Position numbers and translations under genes: made by a program | Assembly: GCA_951406725.2 (NCBI GenBank) | Contig: OX597826.1 | Span: forward strand, 19,654,001 to 19,718,000 | Direction: 5' to 3' | DNA: 64,000 nt | Source of the DNA: Octopus vulgaris | Taxonomy: Eukaryota | Notes under the pieces: model-generated | Seen by the model: only the letters and a program-made list of their open reading frames with translations | Databases searched by the model: none | What the model was told of the DNA's origin: nothing | In this document: piece after piece, positions 541-61,611 of the stretch | Layout: each line of letters opens with the position of its first letter | Numbering within the stretch: position 1 is the first letter of the stretch

Positions 541-1739
<1,199 letters not shown>

Positions 1740-1937
1740 TACAAAATTAGAGAATGGAGAAACATACTTAAATCAGTAAAACATCAACTATCCGATGATA
1801 CTCAATCCATACTTTAATACACCATTACATATGAGTAAAGGCAATATATAAAATGAAATGAGATATACAGTAATAGTAAAAGTAAAAAGATAAAGAGATA
1901 TAAGTAAAAAATTTCAAATATAATATGCAAATAAATC

Positions 1938-2053
1938 AAAACTGACAGCTGTTTCGGCAGTGAGGACAGTCATACCTCATTTAACCTATAAGCCATAAAG
2001 GCAGGTATAAATGAGGCATTAACAAGGATGCCCCACGGCCTCTTCAGAGAATT
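1938..2053 (-). ncRNA. Type-I hammerhead ribozyme with 85-nt extended stem II (PLE copy 1)
   Basis: Reverse strand: aattct CTGAAGA ggccgtggggca...atgcctcattta...taaatgaggtat...tgtcctcactgcc GAAA cagctg TC agtttt. Core complete, palindromic stem III CAGCTG, GUC triplet. Stem I is weak. Confidence 0.8.
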
Positions 2054-2398
2054 AAATTAAATTTGTTATAATAGTGAAAAATATTATATAATCATATACA
2101 TATAAATATAAAAATATAAAAATGTAAAATATAAAAACTTATACATCATAATGCTACACTTATATAATATAATACACATTTGTACAAAAAGGAAGGTAAA
2201 CAGAACAAAATAAAACAAAATATATAACAGTGTATATATTAATATTAATAAGTACCGATATTATACATATTTGGCTAATAGTTTTTTTTATAAAAAAAAA
2301 AAAAAAAAGGGCTAACACATATGGAGATGAAAAATAATAATTAAATCCGTGGTACAGTTCATAAAATTCTAAAGCTATAAAAGTTAATAAAAATTACT

Positions 2399-2442
<44 letters not shown>

Positions 2443-4211
2443 TAATAATAATAAAAAAATACTAAAAATAGATACAGTTAAGTTAGCACCAAGTCCATCC
2501 TTTCAAGATCGAAATAACTATGAGTTAAGAAATGCTGACCACTAGGTAAAGAAAATTTAGATTAATTCGATTGGCTATTGGTTTGAAATTTAAATCACAA
2601 AAGAAAATTATACGGTTGGTTAGTCAAGGAACGCCAATATTCACACACGCATCTACAGATCAATCGCACATACACACATAGTTATATGTATATACATACA
2701 CTTATACACATACACAATCACAAGCAACAACTAGCACTTAGATAAACAAAAAAGGGAAGCAACTATGCTAACATTTAGTCCTTCAAAATTATAACTGAGC
2801 CTCAATAACAAAAAAAGAACCATCCATGCATTCTATAAAATATTTAATTTAGATATAAATATATTTATAAATATCAGTATGTTACTAATTCAGATAATTA
2901 TTTCATGGGTAACTTAAAATTTATAACACCGGTTTGTTACAGAGTAAACATACGGTTGTTAGGTTTATCGTAAGTTTGTTATGATTTTAAGTACGCTAAA
3001 TTATAAAATATAAAATATAAAATATATATTAATTTAAATATTATAAATAAGTCACTTATTAACTTAATAAATATAGTGCCATAATATACCAGTTTAGGCA
3101 TTAAAGAATAGAAGGGGAAGTATTAATGTAAACGCTTATGAGAACATCACAGAAATTTTAAATAAATTTTATATTATAAAGACTTAAGATGCAAAGAGAT
3201 AAAATAAATAAAAAGGAAGTAAAAAGGAATAAATACGAAGGAATAAATACGGTTATACACATAATTATAAGTACAAACTAGTATATATGTATTCATATAT
3301 TATTAAAATTAAATAAAAATAAATGATAGATATGTATGTATAAAACTACACCAGTATAAGTAAATAAGTAAAAAATAAATAGGTAACAAATTAGATGACT
3401 TGATATGTATGTAAACATCTACACTTAAATAGGCAAATAAATAAATGAATAGAAGACTAGATGCAAAGATTGATAATATTACAATAAAATGGGAAATAAA
3501 TAAAAATAAATAAAGTGAATATATATATTTTATATTGTTGAAAGTAAATATGTATGGAAGGATAGTTTAAAGTACAGATCCAGAGGACTATAGATATAAA
3601 CTAAATATATGAGGCTGGTAATAATTATAAAGCAAAATGCATGTAAATGAGAAAATGAAAAAAAAAAAAAAAAAAAAAAAAATGAAAAAGGTTTATCAGT
3701 GAATAGCATAAGATACAAATTAAGGTGAGTACAAAAAGACCAAATATATAATAAAAACCTTCCAAATAAACACATACAAAAAAAAAAAAAAAAAAAAAAA
3801 CCTATAATCTCAACCTAAACCCACCAAACTCACAAAAGGCTCTCATATATTACATATTATACAATATCATTACATTATCTAGAGCTAGGTATCTAACCAA
3901 GATATACATATATACTATGCAATATACTATGCAATATTGGAAAACTTCAAAAATCACACATTACAAGGCAAATACCAAAATGAATATGTTATTTTATGTC
4001 ATATTGCATTTCTCTTAAAAAAACAAACAAAAACCCACATACAAAAACCAAGAAACCAATAATACTAGACACATCCATTAATTATTATACAAATGTAGCT
4101 ATAAAAATTATAAAATTATGAAATTTATAAATTGTATACTTTAGAATTATAGAAGACCACAGGTATATTTAGTTAAAGAAGGGAATTAAAAAATTAATAA
4201 TAGTGGAAGTG

Positions 4212-7059
4212 CTAAGTTCTATTTGAATCTAGAAAGGTGAACGGTAGCCTATGAATACAAAAGAAGTTTTTCTCATTAATGTTGTTAATAATTTGCCGAC
4301 CCGCTTTAATAATGAAGAAAATTTCATTAATACATAGAGAGCATTTTTTATTTTTTCCATTATACACAGGTGCTGAAGTTAGTATTTTCCAGTTTAATCT
4401 AAAATCTAAGTTCTTACTTTTAAGTTCCCAAATGTATGCACTTAGCCCTGTAGAGTACATTCTATTTTTATTCCTAAAAGTATATCTGTGATAATTCCAT
4501 CTTTGTTTTATGCTATTCATAGTTGCCCCGATATACACCCTACTACTCAATTGTGTATCTACAGTGCATTGGTAAACTACCTCCTTCCTGAGGCATTGAT
4601 TACCAAATACACATTTATTTTTATTTCTACAATTACAAAGATTAACAGAATGAGGAAATCTAAGATTGGACACCACCCCTATACTACTATTCACATTATA
4701 AGTGTTACAATTGTTATCATCATCCAAACCCAAAATCAACGAATGAGTTAATTTCACATTATCGGCTATATTCCTATCATTAGTACTAGTATTGGTAGTA
4801 GTAGTATGATCCATTACATTTATATTATCTCTGACAGGTATGGTGCACTCATTATTAGTAAGGAGGTTGTTCCCATTAGTTCCAAGAAAATTTCTATTCC
4901 TATTATTAATGAAGAGGGGCAAGTTTTCCTGGTCTAAATTCAAATTTTCTATCCTTATAGAAGTGATCCAGTTTCTTGTTATTAAAAGAGGAGATAATGG
5001 TGGCTAGATTATGAGTAATGCTATATCCCACTCTAACAGTACCGTTGTTAATTAAAGGACTAAATTTATTCCTATCCTTACCAAAATGCCTAAAAATAAC
5101 ATTATGCAAAGCTCTCACTATGTTTGTTTTAATCTGCATTGCATACGGGATAATCAACCAAAGAGTATCCTTATCAGAATTAGGATTGCCTATAGTGTTA
5201 ATGTTATTTGTAAAAATCCTATTCGTAGACCAACTCATAGGATTACTATTCTTACCACTGTTATTATTATATCTATCTGTATCATTATTACCATGGTTAT
5301 TGCGCAAGTAAACTTTACCAATATCATGTCTACCATAAGTTTTAATTCGTATATTATTATTAATATTACTACTATTACCCGTATGCTTAGATCTATTTGA
5401 GCTACCGTTCACCTTTCCAAGGTTAACGTCACTTCTACATTTATTATAGGTGTTATCATATATTCTATTTTTACTATTCTTATGTATATTGTTGATTATC
5501 CTAAATCTATTTGTGTTGTTCCAGATAGTTCTACCTACATTAGGGGTTCCCCTTAGGTATAAACCAAATCTTACTTTTATATCCTGCCTTAAGTAATGCT
5601 GCATTATATCTATCACAGTGTTTGTTAAAAATTTCCTCGTTTGAGGATAAACTAGAAATTCTCTGACTAATGCTACGCACTAGTGCATTTTTAATTTGAG
5701 GGGGTGATTACTAGAACGGTTAATGTATATTAGGTTAGAATTAGGTTTAATATAGGGTTCATGTAAACCATTAGTAATGTTACAATTAACATCTAAATAA
5801 TTAGCAGAATAATTTTCACTTTCAATGATAATGGATAGGCCGAAGCTTTTAAAAAATTTATTTATTCTTTTTTTCAGAAGATCTAATCTCCTATTTGATG
5901 TATTCCTAACACAAAATAAGGCGTCATCCCTGTATAATCCACCTTTTAATTCAGGGAATTCCCTACTAAAGTTATCTAATAGATACATCCCAACTAGATC
6001 AGTCACCTCCGCTGAGTCCGGCGATCCCATTGTGATATCGAACAAGTTGGGTGTGTCCTTTCTAGCCCAAAGTTTATTATCAAACTCTATTAAAGTTTTC
6101 CTGGCTGTTAGTATAACCTTAATCTCCCCCATACTTAATTTAGTGTGTTTTCTAGCAAAAATTAAGGACTTATTTAATATAATAGGGTTAATTGAAGTGT
6201 AATAATTCTGTATATCGAATTGTATAAATTTATTTCTATTATAGCTAAAGTTGTTACTGTCACAGACCTTAATGGTAGAAAACCAATCCAAAGCACCCTG
6301 AGTATTCTTCCAAAGGTTTAGTTTGATTTTATTGCGGATGGTGGGTAGATATTTATCTAGAATGAGTTTACTTAGTCTGCCTAAGTCAGATTTAGTGGGG
6401 CAAATTAATCTGACCTGTGTGTTTCCAAGAAAATTCTCTTTATGATCCTTTAGTGTAATTCTCGGTCTGGATGGGGTGTAGGGTTCCGTTTTTTCTTCTA
6501 GGTAGTAGTCAAATATGATTTCTCTGATCTCCAGGTTCAGTTTTCTAAGTGTACTAGAAGGTACTACTTTGTATTTCTTGGTTATTTCCTTGTGTAGAAG
6601 ATCATGATATGCAGTAATGTCAATGTTGTAGATGTTGTTGGTTTTGTCAGAATGTGTTAGAATGCCGCTCTTACCTTTGAGAGTTCTAATTAAGTCTTTC
6701 AATTCTCTTTGGTGCGGGTTATATCTTAAAGGATGATTTCTAAATTTTATGTTTTTTACAGTCTCCCATAGTTCTTGTTCAAAATTGTCTAGATGTATAT
6801 TTGGTGGAGGAGACTTTCTAGATTTAAATGTAGTGCCTGTTAGTTTTAATATTTCTTCATAGGTGCTTCCAATTCCATTACGGATCGTTTCCCCAGTGTG
6901 TTGTTGGTTTATTTTATTATTATAGTTCTCATGGTGGAAAATCCTCCATCTGATCCTATGGATGAATTCATTCATTCTATAAATTAGTTCTTTAGTGTAA
7001 TGGTCTTTGGTAGGGATAGGTACATCCTTCATTGATGAATTGATCAGTATTTTCTCCAT
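4212..7059 (-). CDS. PLE polyprotein: reverse transcriptase, Asn-rich linker and GIY-YIG endonuclease (about 950 aa after correcting 3 homopolymer frameshifts)
   Basis: RT motifs [42 protein letters not shown] and thumb [21 protein letters not shown]: CNCRNKNKCVFGNQCL, VVYQC...VYIGAT, QRWNYH, LSAYIWELK, KCSLCINE, FCIH. Frameshifts at about 5700, 5545 and 4940. Confidence 0.9.
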
Positions 7060-7571
7060 TCTTCTAGCAGTAATGATCAAAGGAACAAATATACTACACT
7101 AGGGTGTATTCACATGCACTATTAATATTTAAATCAATAAATGGATGCTTATATTACACCAGTATGAGCAATTCAGGTTCCTCAAAAGATAAATTTAGGT
7201 TATAAAATGAGATAGGGGTTGAAAATTCAACCCACCATGGGATAATATATATCCAATATACTGCTAGATAGGTACCCAACAAAATTAATACATAGATGTT
7301 AAAAATTGTCAAGCAATCAGTTCATCTATTGTATTAAATGGGTAAAGGTAATAATATTACCGTAAATTAATACTACAAAATTAGAGAATGGAGAAACATA
7401 CTTAAATCAGTAAAACATCAACTATCCGATGATACTCAATCCATACTTTAATACACCATTACATATGAGTAAAGGCAATATATAAAATGAAATGAGATAT
7501 ACAGTAATAGTAAAAGTAAAAAGATAAAGAGATATAAGTAAAAAATTTCAAATATAATATGCAAATAAATC

Positions 7572-7687
7572 AAAACTGACAGCTGTTTCGGCAGTGAGGA
7601 CAGTCATACCTCATTTAACCTATAAGCCATAAAGGCAGGTATAAATGAGGCATTAACAAGGATGCCCCACGGCCTCTTCAGAGAATT
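7572..7687 (-). ncRNA. Type-I hammerhead ribozyme with extended stem II (PLE copy 2)
   Basis: Same sequence as 1938-2053, offset by 5634 nt. Confidence 0.8.
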
Positions 7688-8030
7688 AAATTAAATTTGT
7701 TATAATAGTGAAAAATATTATATAATCATATACATATAAATATAAAAATATAAAAATGTAAAATATAAAAACTTATACATCATAATGCTACACTTATATA
7801 ATATAATACACATTTGTACAAAAAGGAAGGTAAACAGAACAAAATAAAACAAAATATATAACAGTGTATATATTAATATTAATAAGTACCGATATTATAC
7901 ATATTTGGCTAATAGTTTTTTTTATAAAAAAAAAAAAAAAGGGCTAACACATATGGAGATGAAAAATAATAATTAAATCCGTGGTACAGTTCATAAAATT
8001 CTAAAGCTATAAAAGTTAATAAAAATTACT

Positions 8031-8074
<44 letters not shown>

Positions 8075-9394
8075 TAATAATAATAAAAAAATACTAAAAA
8101 TAGATACAGTTAAGTTAGCACCAAGTCCATCCTTTCAAGATCGAAATAACTATGAGTTAAGAAATGCTGACCACTAGGTAAAGAAAATTTAGATTAATTC
8201 GATTGGCTATTGGTTTGAAATTTAAATCACAAAAGAAAATTATACGGTTGGTTAGTCAAGGAACGCCAATATTCACACACGCATCTACAGATCAATCGCA
8301 CATACACACATAGTTATATGTATATACATACACTTATACACATACACAATCACAAGCAACAACTAGCACTTAGATAAACAAAAAAGGGAAGCAACTATGC
8401 TAACATTTAGTCCTTCAAAATTATAACTGAGCCTCAATAACAAAAAAAGAGCCATCCATGCATTCTATAAAATATTTAATTTAGATATAAATATATTTAT
8501 AAATATCAGTATGTTACTAATTCAGATAATTATTTCATGGGTAACTTAAAATTTATAACACCGGTTTGTTACAGAGTAAACATACGGTTGTTAGGTTTAT
8601 CGTAAGTTTGTTATGATTTTAAGTACGCTAAATTATAAAATATAAAATATAAAATATATATTAATTTAAATATTATAAATAAGTCACTTATTAACTTAAT
8701 AAATATAGTGCCATAATATACCAGTTTAGGCATTAAAGAATAGAAGGGGAAGTATTAATGTAAACGCTTATGAGAACATCACAGAAATTTTAAATAAATT
8801 TTATATTATAAAGACTTAAGATGAAAAGAGATAAAAAAATAAATAAAAAGGAATAAATACGAAGGAATAAATACGGTTATACACATAATTATAAGTACAA
8901 ACTAGTATATATGTATTCATATATTATTAAAATTAAATAAAAATAAATGATAGATATGTATGTATAAAACTACACCAGTATAAGTAAATAAGTAAAAAAT
9001 AAATAGGTAACAAATTAGATGACTTGATATGTATGTAAACATCTACACTTAAATAGGCAAATAAATAAATGAATAGAAGACTAGATGCAAAGATTGATAA
9101 TATTACAATAAAATGGGAAATAAATAAAAATAAATAAAGTGAATATATATATTTTATATTGTTGAAAGTAAATATGTATGGAAGGATAGTTTAAAGTACA
9201 GATCCAGAGGACTATAGATATAAACTAAATATATGAGGCTGGTAATAATTATAAAGCAGAATGCATGTAAATGAGAAAATGAAAAAAAAAAAAAAAAAAA
9301 TGAAAAAGGTTTATCAGTGAATAGCATAAGATACAAATTAAGGTGAGTACAAAAAGACCAAATATATAATAAAAACCTTCCAAATAAACACATA

Positions 9395-9428
<34 letters not shown>

Positions 9429-9837
9429 ATAATCTCAACCTAAACCCACCAAACTCACAAAAGGCTCTCATATATTACATATTATACAATATCATTACAT
9501 TATATAGAGCTAGGTATCTAACCAAGATATACATATATACTATGCAATATACTATGCAATATTGGAAAACTTCAAAAATCACACATTACAAGGCAAATAC
9601 CAAAATGAATATGTTATTTTATGTCATATTGCATTTCTCTTAAAAAAACAAACAAAAACCCACATACAAAAACCAAGAAACCAATAATACTAGACACATC
9701 CATTAATTATTATACAAATGTAGCTATAAAAATTATAAAATTATGAAATTTATAAATTGTATACTTTAGAATTATAGAAGACCACAGGTATATTTAGTTA
9801 AAGAAGGGAATTAAAAAAATTAATAATAGTGGAAGTG

Positions 9838-11615
9838 CTAAGTTCTATTTGAATCTAGAAAAGGTGAACGGTAGCCTATGGATACAAAAGAAGTTTTTCT
9901 CATTAATGTTGTTAATAATTTGCCGACCCGCTTTAATAATGAAGAAAATTTCATTAATACATAGAGAGCATTTTTATTTTTTCCATTATACACAGGTGCT
10001 GAAGTTAGTATTTTCCAGTTTAATCTAAAATCTAAGTTCTTACTTTTAAGTTCCCAAATGTATGCACTTAGCCCTGTAGAGTACATTCTATTTTTATTCC
10101 TAAAAGTATATCTGTGATAATTCCATCTTTGTTTTATGCTATTCATAGTTGCCCCGATATACACCCTACTACTCAATTGTGTATCTACAGTGCATTGGTA
10201 AACTACCTCCTTCCTGAGGCATTGATTACCAAATACACATTTATTTTTATTTCTGCAATTACAAAGATTAACAGAATGAGGAAATCTAAGATTGGACACC
10301 ACCCCTATACTACTATTCACATTATAAGTGTTACAATTGTTATCATCATCCAAACCCAAAATCAACGAATGAGTTAATTTCACATTATCGGCTATATTCC
10401 TATCACTAGTACTAGTATTGGTAGTAGTAGTATGATCCATTACATTTATATTATCTCTGACAGGTATGGTGCACTCATTATTAGTAAGGAGGTTGTTCCC
10501 ATTAGTTCCAAGAAAATTTCTATTCCTATTATTAATGAAGAGGGGCAAGTTTTCCTGGTCTAAATTCAATTTTCTATCCTTATAGAAGTGATCCAGTTTC
10601 TTGTTATTAAAAGAGGAGATAATGGTGGCTAGATTATGAGTAATGCTATATCCCACTCTAACAGTATCGTTGTTAATTAAAGGACTAAATTTATTCCTAT
10701 CCTTACCAAAATGCCTAAAAATAACATTATGCAAAGCTCTCACTATGTTTGTTTTAATCTGCATTGCATACGGGATAATCAACCAAAGAGTATCCTTATC
10801 AGAATTAGGATTGCCTATAGTATTAATGTTATTTGTAAAAATCCTATTCGTAGACCAACTCATAGGATTACTATTCTTACCACTGTTATTATTATATCTA
10901 TCTGTATCATTATTACCATGGTTATTGCGCAAGTAAACTTTACCAATATCATGTCTACCATAAGTTTTAATTCGTATATTATTATTAATATTACTACTAT
11001 TACCCGTATGCTTAGATCTATTTGAGCTACCGTTCACCTTTCCAAGGTTAACGTCACTTCTACATTTATTATAGGTGTTATCATATATTCTATTTTTACT
11101 ATTCTTATGTATATTGTTGATTATCCTAAATCTATTTGTGTTGTTCCTGATAGTTCTACCTACATTAGGGGGGTTCCCCTTAGGTATAAACCAAATCTTA
11201 CTTTTATATCCTGCCTTAAGTAATGCTGCATTATATCTATCACAGTGTTTGTTAAAAATTTCCTCGTTTGAGGATAAACTAGAAATTCTCTGACTAATGC
11301 TACGCACTAGTGCATTTTTAATTTGAGGGGGTGATTACTAGAACGGTTAATGTATATTAGGTTAGAATTAGGTTTAATATAGGGTTCATGTAAACCATTA
11401 GTAATGTTACAATTAACATCTAAATAATTAGCAGAATAATTTTCACTTTCAATGATAATGGATAGGCCGAAGCTTTTAAAAAATTTATTTATTCTTTTTT
11501 TCAGAAGATCTAATCTCCTATTTGATGTATTCCTAACACAAAATAAGGCGTCATCCCTGTATAATCCACCTTTTAATTCAGGGAATTCCCTACTAAAGTT
11601 ATCTAATAGATACAT
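9838..11615 (-). pseudogene. 5'-truncated second copy of the PLE ORF (RT C-terminal part, linker, GIY-YIG)
   Basis: ORFs 11307-11615 and 9838-11307 are near-identical to copy 1 but carry different homopolymer frameshifts. Confidence 0.9.
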
Positions 11616-11991
11616 AATCTAGCCACCATTATCTCCTCTTTTAATAACAAGAAACTGGATCACTTCTATAAGGATAGAAAATTGAATTTAGACCAGGAAA
11701 ACTTGCCCCTCTTCATTAATAATAGGAATAGAAATTTTCTTGGAACTAATGGGAACAACCTCCTTACTAATAATGAGTGCACCATACCTGTCAGAGATTT
11801 ATATTATCTCTGACAGGTATGGTGCACTCATTATTAGTAAGGAGGTTGTTCCCATTAGTTCCAAGAAAATTTCTATTCCTATTATTAATGAAGAGGGGCA
11901 AGTTTTCCTGGTCTAAATTCAATTTTCTATCCTTATAGAAGTGATCCAGTTTCTTGTTATTAAAAGAGGAGATAATGGTGGCTAGATTATG
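11613..11991. repeat. Foldback palindrome within the PLE, arms about 186 bp, 7-nt loop
   Basis: 11613-11798 is the reverse complement of 11806-11991; loop ttatatt at 11799-11805. Confidence 0.9.
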
Positions 11992-12943
11992 AGTAATGCT
12001 ATATCCCACTCTAACAGTATCGTTGTTAATTAAAGGACTAAATTTATTCCTATCCTTACCAAAATGCCTAAAAATAACATTATGCAAAGCTCTCACTATG
12101 TTTGTTTTAATCTGCATTGCATACGGGATAATCAACCAAAGAGTATCCTTATCAGAATTAGGATTGCCTATAGTATTAATGTTATTTGTAAAAATCCTAT
12201 TCGTAGACCAACTCATAGGATTACTATTCTTACCACTGTTATTATTATATCTATCTGTATCATTATTACCATGGTTATTGCGCAAGTAAACTTTACCAAT
12301 ATCATGTCTACCATAAGTTTTAATTCGTATATTATTATTAATATTACTACTATTACCCGTATGCTTAGATCTATTTGAGCTACCGTTCACCTTTCCAAGG
12401 TTAACGTCACTTCTACATTTATTATAGGTGTTATCATATATTCTATTTTTACTATTCTTATGTATATTGTTGATTATCCTAAATCTATTTGTGTTGTTCC
12501 TGATAGTTCTACCTACATTAGGGGGTTCCCCTTAGGTATAAACCAAATCTTACTTTTATATCCTGCCTTAAGTAATGCTGCATTATATCTATCACAGTGT
12601 TTGTTAAAAATTTCCTCGTTTGAGGATAAACTAGAAATTCTCTGACTAATGCTACGCACTAGTGCATTTTTAATTTGAGGGGGGTGATTACTAGAACGGT
12701 TAATGTATATTAGGTTAGAATTAGGTTTAATATAGGGTTCATGTAAACCATTAGTAATGTTACAATTAACATCTAAATAATTAGCAGAATAATTTTCACT
12801 TTCAATGATAATGGATAGGCCGAAGCTTTTAAAAAATTTATTTATTCTTTTTTTCAGAAGATCTAATCTCCTATTTGATGTATTCCTAACACAAAATAAG
12901 GCGTCATCCCTGTATAATCCACCTTTTAATTCAGGGAATTCCC

Positions 12944-13979: not shown

Positions 13980-16963
13980 GCAATTGCAGCTACTATCCGA
14001 TTGAGGAAATTTAACCTTGCCACAATTCACTGCATCCCTATTATTATTAATAGTGTTACACACATTCCCACTACTTAATCCTACATTTAATGGGATTCTA
14101 TGTTTGACATTATTACTGATATTCATATCATTAGGATTACTATTGCGAATAGCAGTATCATCCATTAAATTAATATTTGTCGCTACAGGGGTAGTACTAT
14201 TATAACCAGCATGAGGGTTGCTCACGTTCGCACTATTAGATTTATTGCCTCCCCGGTTATAGAGAGGCAAATTTCTGCTACCCAAATTTATCTTTCTATC
14301 ACTATAGAAGCAGTCTAATTTTCTATTATTAAAGGAGGAAATGATGGTGGCTAAATTGTGAGTAAGGCTATACCCTATTCTAATAGTTTTATTGTTAGTT
14401 ATTTGACCAAATTTATTCTTACCTTTCACAAAGTGCTTATACAATAAATTATGGATTATTCTAACTATATCTGTTTTGATTTGCATTGCATATGGGATTA
14501 TTAGCAATAGTGCATCATTATCACTATGTAGGTTATTAATAATAATAGGGATGCAGTGAATTGTGGCAAGGTTAAATTTCCTCATTCGGATAGTAGCTGC
14601 AATTGCAGAAACAGAGATAAATGTGTGTTCAATAATGAATGCCTGAGGAAAGAGGTGGTTTATCAATGCATTGTGAATACACAAGATGATAGTAGGGTGT
14701 ACATTGGTGCGACTAAAAATAGTATGAAACAACGACTAAACTATTATAGATACACTTTTAAAAATAAAAATAGGATGAATTCTACGGGGTTAAGTACTTA
14801 TATTTGGGAACTTAAGAGCAAGAATATAGATTTTGACTTAAATTGGAAAATACTCACTTCCGCACCAGTATATAATAATAGAAATAAAAAATTCTCTTTA
14901 TGTATCAATGAAATTTTCTTCATCATCAAAGCTGGCCTACCCATTATTAATAATATTAATGAGCGGAATTTTTTTTGCCTTCACAGACTAGTGTATACCT
15001 TCTCTAGATTTAAATAGCACCTAGTTTTTCTGCCAGTAATTTTTTAACATTTTTCTATATAGGATTGCGCTCTTGGACGTTATAATTTATAATTTTATAT
15101 CTCCATATATTTATTCTGTATTGATTGTTTTTGTCTTGGCTTGAAAATATATTGAAATATATATGTATATTCTGATATATACATGGTATTTTGATCTTCA
15201 TGGAGTTTTCCGTATCATATCTTAGGCTGTTGGTTTGGGATTTTGTTATACTGATACATAACTAGTATGGGTCTATATTTAGTATACAGTGTTTATTTTT
15301 GGATAAGTATGTATATATATATTTACTTATATTTTGTGTGTATGTGTATGTTTATGTCAGTATGTATATGTATATATATGTATAAGTATATGTTTATGTG
15401 TAGGTGTATGTATTAGTCTATGCATACATGTGTATACTTAGGTGGATATATGTGATTGTATATGTATATATATCTTCCTTGTAAGCTTTCCCATGTATTT
15501 GTTTGGCAGTCTTATATATTAAGTTCTCTTTGTATACATCTTAATTTGTGTTTTATTTATTTATGTTTTTTTTTAATTTTATTTATTTTAATTTTATTTT
15601 TTCTTCTTATTATTACTATTATTATTATTTTCTTTTATTCTATTTTATTTTTTATTCATTATTTATTATTTTTTATCTTTTATTTATTTTTTTAGTTACT
15701 AGCACCTATTAATTTATAATTAATTTATATCTTACATTTTAAATTTAATAATAATTTCTGTTAACATATTGTATATGTATTTATATGTCTTTCGGTTGTC
15801 TGGTTATGCATGAATGTATATATATGCAAAGCTGTGGGCAGACATGTATATCTGTAATTTCGTACATATATGTGGATATGTCTACATATGTGCATGTGTA
15901 TATGTATATGTATATTTATATGTATATATATATATTCATGGGTGGATATATGTGTATATGGTTTTTTTATATATATGAATACATATATGAGTGTGTATGT
16001 ATGTATATGCAAATGTTTGCGGATGCAGTGCATGCGAGTGTATATATGCATATGGCTGTGTGCCGGTGTGTGTGTGTGTGTGTATGTATGTTGGTGCAGT
16101 TTTCCCATGCCTATGCTTGTTTATTAGTGAAGGTTTGAGTAGGAACACAGTCGAAATTGTGGTTATCTGGAAGGTTTAACAGCACGATAAATGTTTACGA
16201 AATATGCAGTGTAATTTTAATTATGTATCTTATGCTAATAACATACTTCGACTGGGTATGGGTGTCTGTTTACATGCATATATATATATTTATGGATATA
16301 TGTGAGTAGTTATGTATGTAAACATATATGTATGTATGTAAGCTTGTATTTCCTGTATTGTGATTTATCCATGTAAATATGTGTAATCGCACATATACCT
16401 GTGTACGTATGTAAGTATTTCTTAACAAACCAACCGTAATGAAGACAATTGAAATTCAAATGTGCCAGCCAATCGTATTGGGCGTTCGATATTTAACTAT
16501 CTCTGAACTTAATACTTTACACATATCACAGTCAAAATTATGGCTTGCACCCGTGTATATGCTTGTGCACCTGCGAAATTTGCTATGATGTAAATTAATG
16601 TTTTTCATTTTTCATTTTATATGTATTTGCCGATCTATAATGCTTTGCATGGTACTGTATTATTGTTGTTGTTGTTTTTGCTATTATGTTGCTAACCGCG
16701 TGATGCGTATATTGTTTTGCTGGTATTAATGTTATTAATAATAATAATAATGATATTAGTAGCAATAGTGGCAATGGTAATAGTAATGATGGTAATATTA
16801 ATGGCATTTTGTAACTTAATATAATGAACTCTTGACTTTGTATATCTGCATTTGAATATAGATATGTGTATGTTTGTATATTGTAATATTTTAATATATT
16901 GTTTTGACCAACTGTAACCTTGAATATAGAACATATGTATGTATACTGCTGTATATTATTATG

Positions 16964-17001
<38 letters not shown>

Positions 17002-17220
17002 AGTATGGGTATATGCACTTATATGTATGTGTATATTATATATTATGGGTATGTACCCACTCTTGTATGGGTGTACCTCCCCTGATATTCATATTTAATT
17101 TAGTTTGTACTTCATAATCTCTGAAGAGGCCTTGGGATATTTTTGTAAGTGTCTCATTTATAACCACATATTAACTTATCGCACATGGCTAATATGAGCA
17201 TAATGAGATACCCATATCTG
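13980..17220 (+). mobile_element. Diverged relative of the Hydra-like PLE with a 5' inversion
   Basis: Plus-strand GIY-YIG ORF 14556-15017 (CNCRNRDKCVFNNECL, VVYQC, VYIGAT). Linker domain inverted on the minus strand at 13980-14530; about 73-bp inverted overlap (13980-14052 / 14534-14606). Long 3' UTR ends in a truncated HHR. Confidence 0.85.
17114..17220 (+). ncRNA. Truncated hammerhead (5' core and long stem II; GAAA half missing)
   Basis: ataatct CTGAAGA ggccttgggatat...gtgtctcatt...aatgagatac...atatc, homologous to 1938-2053 and cut off at 17220 by an unrelated repeat. Confidence 0.6.
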
Positions 17221-17622
17221 TTCAGAAGACAATACAAAAAACGTAGACGGGTCACTCAAAGCCTTCAATCTTCAGTCAAGAACCGGATCATCCTCGCAAT
17301 TTCAGCTGATTAATCTTGAGATTGCTCCAATCTGGCCAGCCCCAAGGAAAAACTAAGCTAAGAGCATCAGATTCCTTGGAAAAAAGCTTCGAATGTATAC
17401 GAAACAAGGACGGAAAAACGGACAATGTTACACGAATATAAATACAAAAATAATACGGAAAAACAATAATAATAATAATAATAACAATAACAGGACATCA
17501 CAATAGGCGTCTTTTTACTTAGACGAATTGAACTCAGCTGGCATGTTAGGAATGTGCCTAGGGGCAGAGAAAAAAAATGTTGATGTTACCACATACATAT
17601 ATATATATATATATACACATAT

Positions 17623-30454: not shown

Positions 30455-30496
30455 CACAGACATACATTATGCATTGTTATAAATCTGTCTAATAAA

Positions 30497-30517
30497 GGCC
30501 CGAAACATATGTACCGC
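30497..30517 (+). ncRNA. 3' half of a hammerhead (relic)
   Basis: ggccc GAAA catatg TA ccgc. No CUGANGA upstream; the 5' part is replaced by (TA)n. Confidence 0.35.
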
Positions 30518-32375: not shown

Positions 32376-33050
32376 TATTAATTTATATATAGAGGGCATT
32401 ATTATACATACATGCCACACGCTACGAGGGACAATTAGTCATTTCTACCAAAAAATTTTACTTATCATACCCAATGCAATTTTTTCAAAGCAAGACATTT
32501 AAAAATTGAATTTAATCTTGTATCAACTGTGATTTCGTACTTACCGCCATTAGCGACCGTACTCGTCAGCAAGATTGATTCTGAACATATCATAAATAAA
32601 CGACCAGTCTCGTCAAAACCGAACTGCTAACTGCTCGATCCCAACGAAGCACATGGAGAAGTTTACATATAATACATCCGGTAAATGGCAGGCTTCTTCG
32701 AATTGCATTTCGGGTAGGAAAAGTTTTTTCGGAATAAAATTATTTAACAATTAAGGACAACTTCTTAATAAGGAATCTTAACAAGAAATTATCAGGTAGA
32801 TAGCGTGAAAAACCTCATAAGAGAAAAAATTTCGAAAATAATTCTTTCTTATTGAACATATTAATTTATATATAGAGGGCATTATTATACATACATGCCA
32901 CACGCTACGAGTACGGTCGCTAATGGCGGTAAGTACGAAATCACAGGTGATACAAGATTAAATTCATTTTTTAAATGTCTTGCTTTGAAAAAATTGCATT
33001 GGGTATGATAAGTAAAATTTTTTGGTAGAAATGACTAATTGTCCCTCGTA
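32376..33050. mobile_element. Rearranged non-coding PLE terminus with direct and inverted duplications
   Basis: About 50-bp direct repeat (32376 and 32860) and about 140-bp inverted repeat (32425-32566 / 32907-33049) containing an HHR. Confidence 0.65.
32514..32576 (-). ncRNA. Type-I hammerhead ribozyme
   Basis: Reverse strand: aatcttg CTGACGA gtac-ggtcgctaatggcggtaa-gtac GAAA tca-cagt-tga TA caagatt. 7-bp stem I and complete core. Confidence 0.88.
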
Positions 33051-39517: not shown

Positions 39518-39519
<2 letters not shown>

Positions 39520-40105
39520 AGTAATTAAGGGTTTAGCAACGATTTGCCTCACCACACACCGAATTTAGAAATAGCAGTCAAAGAGTTATGGCTATTCTTT
39601 CTACTTAAAAGGGAGATCCCAGTAAAACCACAGCACTTAAAAGGCAAACAACGCAGGCAAAAGAGAAAGAAATGACGACAATCATTCTATATTAAGTCAC
39701 CTACGGACGTACGTTTCGAAATTAAGTCATAGGAAAGCATAAAAATTAAATAATTATGTCTAACCCAACTATTTTTCTCTTCAGCGTAGGACTCTTCAAT
39801 TATAAATAATTGCGTCTCAATCAATAATAATTGTGTATTAAATTTGGAGGCACTAGAAGACATCACCTCAACTCATGTGAGCGTGGTTTTACTGGGATCT
39901 CCCTTTTAAGTAGAAAGAATAGCCATAACTCTTTGACTGCTATTTCTAAATTCGGTGTGTGGTGAGGCAAATCATTGCTAAACCCTTAATTACTTAGTAT
40001 TACTTAAACCTTCCTTGAATGGGGCTTTTACATGCCGAAATCTACTTGGTGAAATTAATGATTATTCCAAATTAATTAATTTCACCCTATATTATTATTG
40101 ATAAT
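39518..40105. mobile_element. Non-coding PLE terminus with about 114-bp inverted repeats around a hammerhead
   Basis: 39518-39631 is the reverse complement of 39883-39997; TA arrays on both sides. Confidence 0.65.
39700..39790 (-). ncRNA. Type-I hammerhead ribozyme with 60-nt stem II
   Basis: Reverse strand: cctacg CTGAAGA gaaa...tttc GAAA cgtacg TC cgtagg. 6-bp stem I, palindromic stem III, GUC triplet. Confidence 0.87.
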
Positions 40106-58289: not shown

Positions 58290-58475
58290 TATATACAGAC
58301 ACATATATACACACACACATACATACACACACACATATACACACACACATACATACACACACATATATACACACACATATATACAGACACATATATATAT
58401 ACACACACATATATACAGACACATATATATATATATATGACTTCATAACTTAAAATTGAATAGAAGATCTGAAAT

Positions 58476-58521
58476 CCACCTGATGAATGTCCTTAGAAGA
58501 GACACGAAACAATTGTAGTGG
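58476..58521 (+). ncRNA. Type-I minimal hammerhead ribozyme
   Basis: ccac CTGATGA a-tgtc-cttagaaga-gaca-c GAAA caattg TA gtgg; palindromic stem III. First stem II pair is an A-C mismatch. Confidence 0.83.
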
Positions 58522-58805: not shown

Positions 58806-58890
58806 CTCCTACACATGTTTTGATGGATGTATTCAAAATACGTTTGCCCGGATGAGTAATGGTCAACTATGCATCAATCTCATCAGGGAG
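58806..58890 (-). ncRNA. Degenerate hammerhead with long stem II (G12 mutated to A)
   Basis: Reverse strand: ctcc CTGATGA gattgatgcat...atacatccatc AAAA catgtg TA ggag. Confidence 0.6.
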
Positions 58891-59689: not shown

Positions 59690-60340
59690 TATATCTAGGT
59701 CCTTTCCATATGATAAAGGTAAAACTTCTTGTCTGCTCTGTAACGAAGAACTCTATCTCATCCTGTTTTCAGAGAATTCTCTTGTAAACACATTTAAACA
59801 ACACAGATACCATTGCAAACATTGGCAAAAACATACCTTTAGTTCCTATAAGTAATTTCCCCCAAACTATAAAATCTGAACTTTAACTGAAATGTATCTA
59901 TTTCCATGCCTTTAAGTCATATTCTCATTCATCTATCACACTACATTTCTCCGCTCTTGATTTTCTGCTAATTTCTTTCTTTCTATTCCTCCTCTTTCTC
60001 TAAATTGCATTTCACATTCAATTTATTCACAGTCTTTTTTAAAAAATAACTTCTCAGCATTCCCTGCATCATATATGCAGTAATCACATTCGACTGAAAC
60101 GGCTTATTGATGTCATTTGTTTATCTTATTTTCCCTGATGAGAAGATCGCATTGCTTCACATCATTTTATTCCATCTGGAATAATAACAATGCTTCCTTT
60201 GAAACATATGTAGGAAGTATGAACATTTGAATAACACCTGCGTTTAACTCCATTACTTTTCACCACAATACAAAAATACTTCACTAAATCCTGCAATTTC
60301 TACCTTTGTATAAGGGCTGGGACATCATTTGTACATGTCA
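58990..60340 (+). mobile_element. Old, divergent Hydra-like PLE fragment (linker, GIY-YIG, 3' UTR, HHR)
   Basis: LIIPYGKQIKPN, SVYQCKI...FYLGSS, GLSKLIWSLK, LKWNI, then an insertion at about 59531-59690, then PYDKGKTSCLLCNEE...HCKH*. Confidence 0.78.
60131..60216 (+). ncRNA. Type-I hammerhead ribozyme with 59-nt stem II
   Basis: ttcc CTGATGA gaag-atc-gcattg...ttattcc-atct-ggaataa...caatgc-ttc-cttt GAAA catatg TA ggaa. Confidence 0.85.
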
Positions 60341-60746: not shown

Positions 60747-60796
<50 letters not shown>

Positions 60797-60799
<3 letters not shown>

Positions 60800-61611
60800 T
60801 ATAAAATGAGATAGGGGTTGAAAATTCAACCCACCATGGGATAACATATATCCAATATACTGCTAGAGAGGTACCCAACAAGACTAATACATAAATGTTA
60901 AAAATTGCCATGCAATTAATTCATCTACTGTATTATGTGGGCAAAGGTAAAAATATTACCGTAAATTAATACTACAAAATTAGAAAATGGAGAAACATAC
61001 TTAAATCAATCAAACATCAACCATCAGATGATACCCAATCAATACTTTATTACACCATTACATAACAGCAAAGGCATTATACAAAATATATTGTAAATGT
61101 AATTAGACAAGGAAATAGAAATATAAAATATAAAATATAATATATAATTATATCATATCTGACAGCTGTTTCGGCCGTAAGGACAAGTATGCCTCATTTA
61201 ACTTATAAGCCATATAAGGCAGGTATAAATGAGACATTAACAAGGATGTCCCACGGCCTCTTCAGAGAATATAATTTATTATAAGTGAGAAAAAAATTTT
61301 TTTTTTTATACATATAAATATAAAAATATAAAATATAAAAACGTGTGCATAGACACTCATAACACTACACATATATATATACTCATTAATACAATAATAC
61401 AAAATAAACAAAACAAAATATATCAATATATATTAACAAACACAGTTATTCTACATATTGGGCTTCTAGTTCCAAAACTAACCTACAGGAAAATATATGC
61501 ACACTCACATTTAAATTTAAATCAGACATATACATAAAAAATAATAAAAAAACACACAGTTCAGTTCATAAAATTATAAACCTATAAAAGTCAATAAAAA
61601 TTACTATTAAT

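Follow-up and report, generated by a model that had tools for sequence, protein, structure and literature searches.

The stretch of Octopus vulgaris DNA analysed here, 64,000 nt long and hereafter called the window, carries near its start two tandem units of a retroelement (1736–5988 and 7370–11615). The units are 99.1% alike, and a hammerhead ribozyme motif on the minus strand is therefore present in two identical copies, A1 and A2 (Table 1). Between these two ribozymes lies an open reading frame (ORF) that encodes a reverse transcriptase (RT) and, at its C terminus, a GIY-YIG endonuclease; the N-terminal arrangement of Naiad and Chlamys was not found. In the ORF DKT replaces DKG (SDKTNN), the CxCX5C linker reads CNCRNKNKC, the CxxC and CxH motifs are CSLC and CIH, and RWR is shared with the two nearest relatives where most aligned relatives have RWK. 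The element ends lie at (TA)n arrays, at 1736 for subfamily A and at about 60788 for a second subfamily, B. Judged by domain order, motifs and (TA)n target, the host is a Hydra-clade Penelope-like element (PLE).

Over 32% of the query, the ORF of the A unit is 98% identical to an Octopus sinensis database protein. The cephalopod database proteins P0003, P0004 and P0070 match the A-unit RT and are probably transposon ORFs mis-annotated as “GATA zinc finger domain-containing protein 14-like” or “uncharacterized”. The reading frame is broken at the same SNHP motif in both tandem units (about 5700 and 11330, minus strand), a site through which a partial copy at 12531–12941 reads. Differences between the tandem units are mostly homopolymer indels, some of which may be assembly errors. 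The second unit is joined to another partial copy by a near-perfect fold-back palindrome with 186-nt arms (11613–11983) that gives false Rfam miRNA matches.

The distance from stop codon to ribozyme core is 2165 and 2104 nt in the long-arm lineage, against a median of 110 nt in relatives (33–515, 67 measurements). Within these untranslated regions (UTRs) the motif AACCGTA is followed about 40 nt on by GCCAATCG, in the same order in subfamilies A and C although the UTRs are otherwise unalignable, and the pair stands 530–690 nt upstream of the ribozyme core. We take the two motifs to resemble MYB and CCAAT promoter sites, and the pair, as a sequence feature, may mark the promoter of the pseudo-LTR.

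Table 1. Hammerhead motifs, their parts and associated features in the window
Feature	Position	Strand	Details
3′ UTR/pseudo-LTR of unit A1	1736..4211	−	terminates in (TA)n array, 208 nt beyond predicted cut
Whole A1 motif including stem I	1942..2049	−	2049–2048 with 1942–1943; weak AU-rich extension
GAAA 3′ core, stem III (1952–1945), GUC triplet	1944..1955	−	predicted cut 1944/1943
Stem II domain of A1	1956..2040	−	85 nt
Apical region	1984..2007	−	A, B: small 3-bp hairpin and bulge; C longer, paired differently
Inner helix, 12 bp, 5′ strand	2008..2019	−	partner 1972–1983
Asymmetric internal loop, pyrimidine-rich 5′ side	2020..2028	−	opposite 3′ side 1971–1969
Basal helix, 5′ strand	2029..2040	−	2040–2034 pairs 1956–1962; 2033–2029 pairs 1964–1968; 1963 bulged
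Hammerhead 5′ core CUGAAGA, copy A1	2041..2047	−	
Hydra-clade PLE ORF, RT then GIY-YIG endonuclease	4212..7059	−	frame broken near 5700; Asn-rich insertions
Conserved block downstream of ribozyme	7190..7460; B 60788–61060	−; −	86–94% A–B identity, 85-nt windows
A2 hammerhead, identical to A1, upstream tandem unit	about 7576..7683	−	stem II 7674–7590
AACCGTA/GCCAATCG motifs	2617, 2575; 8249, 8207; 16432, 16468; B 61804	−; −; +; −	B: first motif only
Subfamily C endonuclease end	14567..15045	+	76–78% DNA identity to A; C core 2104 nt downstream
Subfamily C, 5′ core and most of arm	17118..17220	+	interrupted, without 3′ core
3′ half-like motif	30495–30515	+	soon after TA array
Hammerhead, 26-nt stem II	32515–32575	−	longer stem III, 7-bp stem I
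Hammerhead unrelated to A	39700..39790	−	60-nt stem II (39777–39718), 6-bp stem I; no adjoining ORF
Hammerhead, 19-nt stem II	58474–58515	+	
Degenerate hammerhead	58806..58890	−	58-nt stem II region (58879–58822); AAAA for GAAA; found with relaxed core
Hammerhead unrelated to A	60130..60217	+	59-nt stem II (60142–60200), 5-bp stem I; 279 nt after Hydra-type endonuclease end
Subfamily B hammerhead, core complete	61159..61268	−	86-nt stem II 61258–61173

The ribozyme motif and its stem II in three subfamilies

Read from the minus strand, the motif is a type I minimal hammerhead with CUGAAGA at 2047–2041 and GAAA at 1955–1952, and everything between the two, 2040–1956, makes up the complete 85-nt stem II domain. 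The first-pass annotation of this DNA had described an 85-nt insert in stem II. Its length and structure stand, and the basal and inner helices are present as written, though on the minus strand, but the arm is the entire stem II and no separate stem exists beside it; the identical A2 arm (7674–7590) was absent from that list. Both core halves (CUGANGA, GAAA and NUH) are intact in A1, A2 and B, and the G10.1–C11.1 pair that closes stem II is G–C in both A and B. The lower part of the basal helix (2040–2034/1956–1962) has a single C.U mismatch in A, which is C–G in B. Stem III is an 8-nt palindrome (1952–1945) with a duplex energy of −11.1 kcal/mol, and stem I has 2 contiguous bp in A and 3 bp in B, the published descriptor minimum being 3 bp.

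Folding energies are −38.0 kcal/mol for the arm of A (z about −5.5 to −7 relative to dinucleotide shuffles) and −34.7 kcal/mol for that of B (z −5.4 to −6.4 relative to shuffles), with a predicted pairing probability of at least 0.97 at the base of stem II in both. The complementary strands reach −27.7 and −29.3 kcal/mol, so that the ribozyme strand has a folding advantage of 10.3 kcal/mol in A and 5.4 kcal/mol in B, an advantage absent in the truncated C. The active monomer fold lies 4.3 (A) and 7.9 kcal/mol (B) above the best fold, a competitor that pairs the core with stem I sequence; cleavage is therefore not assured, and the modelled energies fit slow or assisted cleavage. In dimer co-folding the stem III duplex appeared, without a clean active fold. 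An alternative identity of the arm as an intron was rejected, since its ends, judged by eye, lack matching splice signals.

The pseudo-LTR of B is 72–77% identical to that of A across 1.1–1.3 kb. Subfamily C is more distant: over 135 codons its synonymous differences from A are saturated (pS 0.72, pN 0.11), and the 2.1-kb UTRs of A and C match only at the ribozyme and at low-complexity stretches. Homology between A and C extends only a few bases beyond the core on the upstream side; the two other short UTR motifs are collinear. The C arm spans 17128–17219 (plus strand), and past the upper basal helix unrelated sequence takes over. It had been put forward as a homolog, and the inner helix and upper basal helix are indeed kept (with three double changes) beneath a different apical region; lacking the lower basal 3′ strand, GAAA, stem III and cut site, however, it is not a complete ribozyme at this locus. 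The arm of C alone folds no better than shuffles (z −0.2). Elsewhere in the same organism, public contigs hold flanks and arms of the C type, each in one or two contigs, and in one of them a C-like 3′ strand runs on through the lower basal helix; none of the public contigs with C-like flanks or arms has a complete C-type core. The sequence that interrupts the C ribozyme (17220–17500) matches nothing else in the window, and its minus strand holds a CUGAAGA that lacks a partner GAAA; it is possibly another element inserted head to head.

Seventeen base pairs can be compared in A (1956 and 7590), B (61173) and C (17128), and 49 of the 51 cells are paired, against 26–56% in slid controls. Ten of the 17 pairs are invariant and three show double-sided changes, all involving C. 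Conservation across three subfamilies, as first proposed, holds in this sense, but with three rows, one of them truncated, and the observed covariation reached in 50 of 500 shuffles, the covariation is suggestive only and cannot reach significance. The changes of G–U to G–C and C–G to U–G that had been cited for B are present and keep pairing, yet each of the five A–B differences within the 24 core pairs affects one side alone, and double changes number zero. Under a random-substitution null the pairing kept from A to B in the 24 core pairs has p 0.0007–0.0014, and that from A to C p 0.011–0.031 for 17 pairs chosen with all three sequences in view. When the A fold was chosen blind it was kept in B (p 0.017–0.049) but not significantly in C (p 0.35–0.56); that fold includes four pairs unique to A in that register.

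Within the shared helices G–U occurs at five positions and an A–C mismatch at none. Outside them the apical helix of B contains a C.A mismatch, and the top two A–U pairs are broken in C. Variants in public contigs were listed at seven sites of the arm, several of which reflect subfamilies B and C and are hence not independent. Five (1959, 1960, 1964, 1966 and 1974) lie in the shared helices and keep or improve pairing, and the other two (1970 and 1971) lie in pairs of the A fold alone, 1970 breaking one.

Sequence is kept as well. The A and B arms are 89% identical, compared with a mean of 75% in other 85-nt windows, 16% of which are equal or higher; those that match the arm come mostly from the block downstream of the ribozyme. 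The 5′ arms of A and C agree at 27 of 35 positions, and a 6-nt apical stretch is invariant in A, B and C. On its 5′ side (2020–2028) the internal loop of B is identical to that of A and the loop of C identical at 6 of 9 positions; the 3′ side differs among all three subfamilies.

Selection on the arm structure is moderately supported by these comparisons, because pairing is kept despite saturated A–C synonymous sites and unalignable UTRs, because the ribozyme strand is the better folder, and because G–U pairs occur without A–C mismatches. The selected RNA structure of the earlier proposal thus gains from pair retention, strand bias and the G–U pattern, and is held back by the 50 of 500 shuffles and by the blind fold in C (p 0.35–0.56).

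Stem II length and detectability

We scanned 88 loci encoding PLE relatives (77 from metagenomes and 11 from genome bins) with stem II allowed up to 200 nt. Sixty-four of them gave 67 distinct motifs, and in all 67 stem II was 10–31 nt long, with a median of 17; the other 24 loci, some of whose contigs may stop before the UTR, gave no motif. Three longer candidates, found with a relaxed score, were dropped as unstructured (z −0.6 to +0.9). The same scan of the window returned seven intact-core motifs with stems II of 85, 85, 86, 60, 59, 26 and 19 nt, so that in five of the seven stem II is at least 59 nt and beyond the published descriptor limits. Stem I in the relatives has a median of 5 bp (range 2–11), and A (2) and B (3) fall at the low end. 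By count, the published Hydra-clade table holds stems II of 10–24 nt (PMC8557442). Loci L078–L088 are Hydra-clade PLE ORFs and hammerheads on contigs of five bacterial genome bins; these contigs are most likely animal host DNA wrongly binned.

Other stem II inserts of about 60 nt had also been reported in this DNA. Two of them, at 39777–39718 and 60142–60200, exist with intact cores, whereas the core of the third (58879–58822) is broken by AAAA. The arms at 39784, 60135 and 58886 have no sequence relation to A (p 0.13–0.8), and the 60- and 59-nt arms are weakly structured (z −1.4 to −2.8).

The expectation that size-limited searches would miss such motifs was borne out. The published minimal descriptor, as given in the supplement of PMC4209133, allows a stem II of 3–7 bp with a loop 2 of 3–10 nt, and the 85–86 nt of A and B exceed both limits; since this is a limit of the search and not a requirement of catalysis, we class the motif as a variant. 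Rfam gave no hammerhead match at E ≤ 10 in 1880–2120 and no miRNA family reaching threshold there, and across the whole window only AT-repeat miRNA artefacts among the best 150 of 217 matches. The output of a repeat finder on the window was dominated by TA arrays. An exact gapped pattern of the long arm had no match in metagenome, prokaryote-genome or viral contigs, and a protein scan of the viral contigs returned no PLE relative. A covariance model of the arm matched nothing in the window beyond the four copies from which it was built, and had no match at E ≤ 1 among the 88 loci. In the literature we found no PLE stem II as long, nor a long one analysed for conservation, though a study of PLE hammerhead dimers (Lunse et al.) or a supplementary file of PMC4209133 could list long-stem variants. 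Counts of PLE ribozymes may be too low in such genomes, which bears equally on claims of families without ribozymes.

Candidate roles of the arm

Minimal PLE hammerheads have no loop I–loop II contact, cleave slowly and act as dimers through a palindromic stem III. With no tertiary duty to perform, loop II would therefore be a permissive site for the gain of sequence, and sequence gained there would survive only when it closes on itself. Fold-back template switching, common in the window, is a plausible source of such hairpins, and the gain would have occurred in a lineage that also enlarged its UTR twenty-fold and its ORF, the latter by Asn-rich insertions. A closed rod could hold the two halves of the core together within a UTR that is long, AU-rich and of low complexity, and the palindrome would stay available for pairing with the next tandem copy. 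The reading that we prefer, and which we hold to be evenly poised between right and wrong, is that stem II has lengthened into a rod, which selection keeps as a folding scaffold and not for catalytic chemistry. It is supported by the outlying length, the retention of pairs, the pairing probability at the base and the recurrence of similar lengths with differing sequence between families. It is weakened by the sequence conservation described above, which a pure scaffold need not show, and by the motif at 60135, where a long arm occurs with an ordinary UTR of 279 nt and is not predicted to form in context.

Slow or helper-dependent cleavage, as predicted here, would leave uncut RNA as the template for new insertions. 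The genomic copies end 208 nt (A) and about 370 nt (B) beyond the predicted cut, and both insertions were therefore likely copied from uncut RNA. This compares with the Anolis PLE, where hammerhead cleavage needed the element's protein and uncut RNA was the main substrate (PMC11167929). Among minimal PLE hammerheads, monomers did not cleave and dimers cleaved at a low level (PMC4209133). The conserved block downstream of the ribozyme covers the sites that correspond to both genomic 3′ ends and contains several predicted hairpins, and the genomic end of B comes after a perfect hairpin; this block, rather than the arm, is the likely candidate region for RT recognition or start.

That placement bears on the main rival reading, which we consider somewhat unlikely, namely that the arm is a sequence-specific site for the element's protein or for a host RNA-binding protein and switches or times cleavage. 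The dependence of the Anolis hammerhead on its protein (PMC11167929) would suit it, as would the ten invariant pairs, 5′ internal loop and 6-nt apical stretch kept despite saturated synonymous sites, and the upstream RNA, once cut, would carry the arm at its extreme 3′ end. Close relatives of like protein architecture, however, have stems II of 10–31 nt, no sequence similarity links A to the window's other long arms, the genomic ends lie far downstream of the arm, and A, B and C all differ on the 3′ side of the internal loop. In the one PLE examined in vitro, that of Anolis, the minimal active RNA begins at +20, past most of stem II, and its RT starts downstream of the ribozyme (PMC11167929); the RT binding put forward in the first-pass annotation is thus weakly supported. 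A broader conjecture, that octopus PLEs have repeatedly built lineage-specific protein-docking domains of 60–90 nt in stem II with RNP-dependent cleavage, and that these form the commonest class and are invisible to Rfam and descriptors, we regard as rather doubtful. A naturally enlarged and retained stem II offers a simple discriminator between an inert scaffold and a binding site, by deletion and swap; if the arm is merely a scaffold, it is a modest extension of the known motif.

It is improbable that the arm is a fold-back template-switch hairpin without a selected role, its apparent conservation coming from DNA homogenisation or a recent module swap. Elements of this kind often contain fold-back inversions, as in the 186-nt near-perfect arms at 11613–11983 and the inverted arms at 39518–39996 and 13980–14606; the turning point of one contig (X20) falls precisely at the stem II base, and the covariation lacks significance. 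Against this, the arms are imperfect and their departures in the shared helices are the five G–U pairs on the ribozyme strand with no A–C mismatch, the strand bias of 10.3 and 5.4 kcal/mol is left unexplained, and the homology boundary and collinear UTR motifs of A and C fit vertical descent. A fold-back remains a plausible origin even with selection maintaining the arm. Still less probable is a tertiary or pseudoknot contact of the arm with stem I or its flanks that compensates for a 2–3 bp stem I; the first-pass annotation had suggested a tertiary contact of this purpose, which the comparisons do not support. Although stem I of A and B stands at the bottom of the relatives' range and the internal loop of A weakly matches the 5′ flank (−3.6 kcal/mol, reached by 3 of 60 shuffles), B and C lack this match, 35% and 97% of their shuffles doing equally well, and no Watson–Crick complementarity of loop and flank is common to A, B and C. 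The loop lies 12 bp from the core, against the 4–5 bp helices II of most type I hammerheads, and arms of 59–60 nt occur on stems I of 5–6 bp. For D. virilis a helix I of 2 bp has been published, stems I of 2–3 bp accompany short stems II in published PLE hammerheads, and in the one minimal PLE hammerhead tested no hidden tertiary contact was detected (PMC4209133). The apical 3′ strand was also considered as a partner of the upstream UTR, and this was rejected, since the best matches differ in place between A and C and are absent in B.

Heavy A-to-I editing is characteristic of octopus, and a long, stable, imperfect duplex, in which some differences between subfamilies are A/G exchanges on the RNA strand (arm positions 10, 22 and 66), could be a substrate of host double-stranded RNA enzymes, through editing or small-RNA processing that tunes or silences the element. 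We think this very improbable, as no helix runs beyond 12 bp without interruption, the exchanges cannot be polarised and no miRNA family reached threshold over this region.

Comparison with known systems

The octopus motif resembles the minimal hammerheads of metazoan PLEs (Cervera and De la Pena 2014, PMC4209133) in being type I, with an intact core, the G10.1–C11.1 pair and a palindromic stem III, and in its short stem I, U-rich and AU-rich flanks and presence in both pseudo-LTRs of a tandem element. It differs from them in having a stem II of 85–86 nt with two or three helices, where stems of 7–8 bp are called “larger than usual”, and in needing no extra unpaired base after A9; cleavage in the octopus motif is predicted.

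With the Hydra-clade PLEs bearing a C-terminal endonuclease, among them Hydra-1_Obim of Octopus bimaculoides (Craig et al. 2021, PMC8557442), the element shares DKT, the CxCX5C, CxxC and CxH motifs, the C-terminal GIY-YIG domain, the (TA)n target and a hammerhead in the 3′ UTR. Unlike the members covered by that account it has RWR in place of RWK, a unit of about 5.6 kb where theirs are generally below 3 kb, and about 2.1 kb of UTR before the ribozyme; stem II of Hydra-1_Obim is 22 nt. The Poseidon element of Anolis carolinensis (Frangieh et al. 2024, PMC11167929) likewise has its hammerhead upstream of the genomic 3′ ends, with two end positions past the cut. It belongs to a different PLE clade, and in it the start codon is overlapped by stem II; the cut here lies about 520 nt upstream of the ORF.

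The locus thus holds a real structural variant of a known pairing of ribozyme and retrotransposon, for which, from sequence alone, the argument for selection is moderate and a distinct function is a candidate only. The spike-moss PLE-X1 hammerheads (PMC8557442, File S2) also have a long stem II, about 53 nt in PLE-X1_sMoe by count. That element belongs to a plant, endonuclease-less, rDNA-targeted clade, its stem is shorter than that of the octopus motif, and it is marked “deviates from canonical” in a table without analysis of conservation or function. Long arms in PLE hammerheads have precedent, and the octopus stem II, its pairing kept in three subfamilies, is roughly five-fold longer than those of its relatives.
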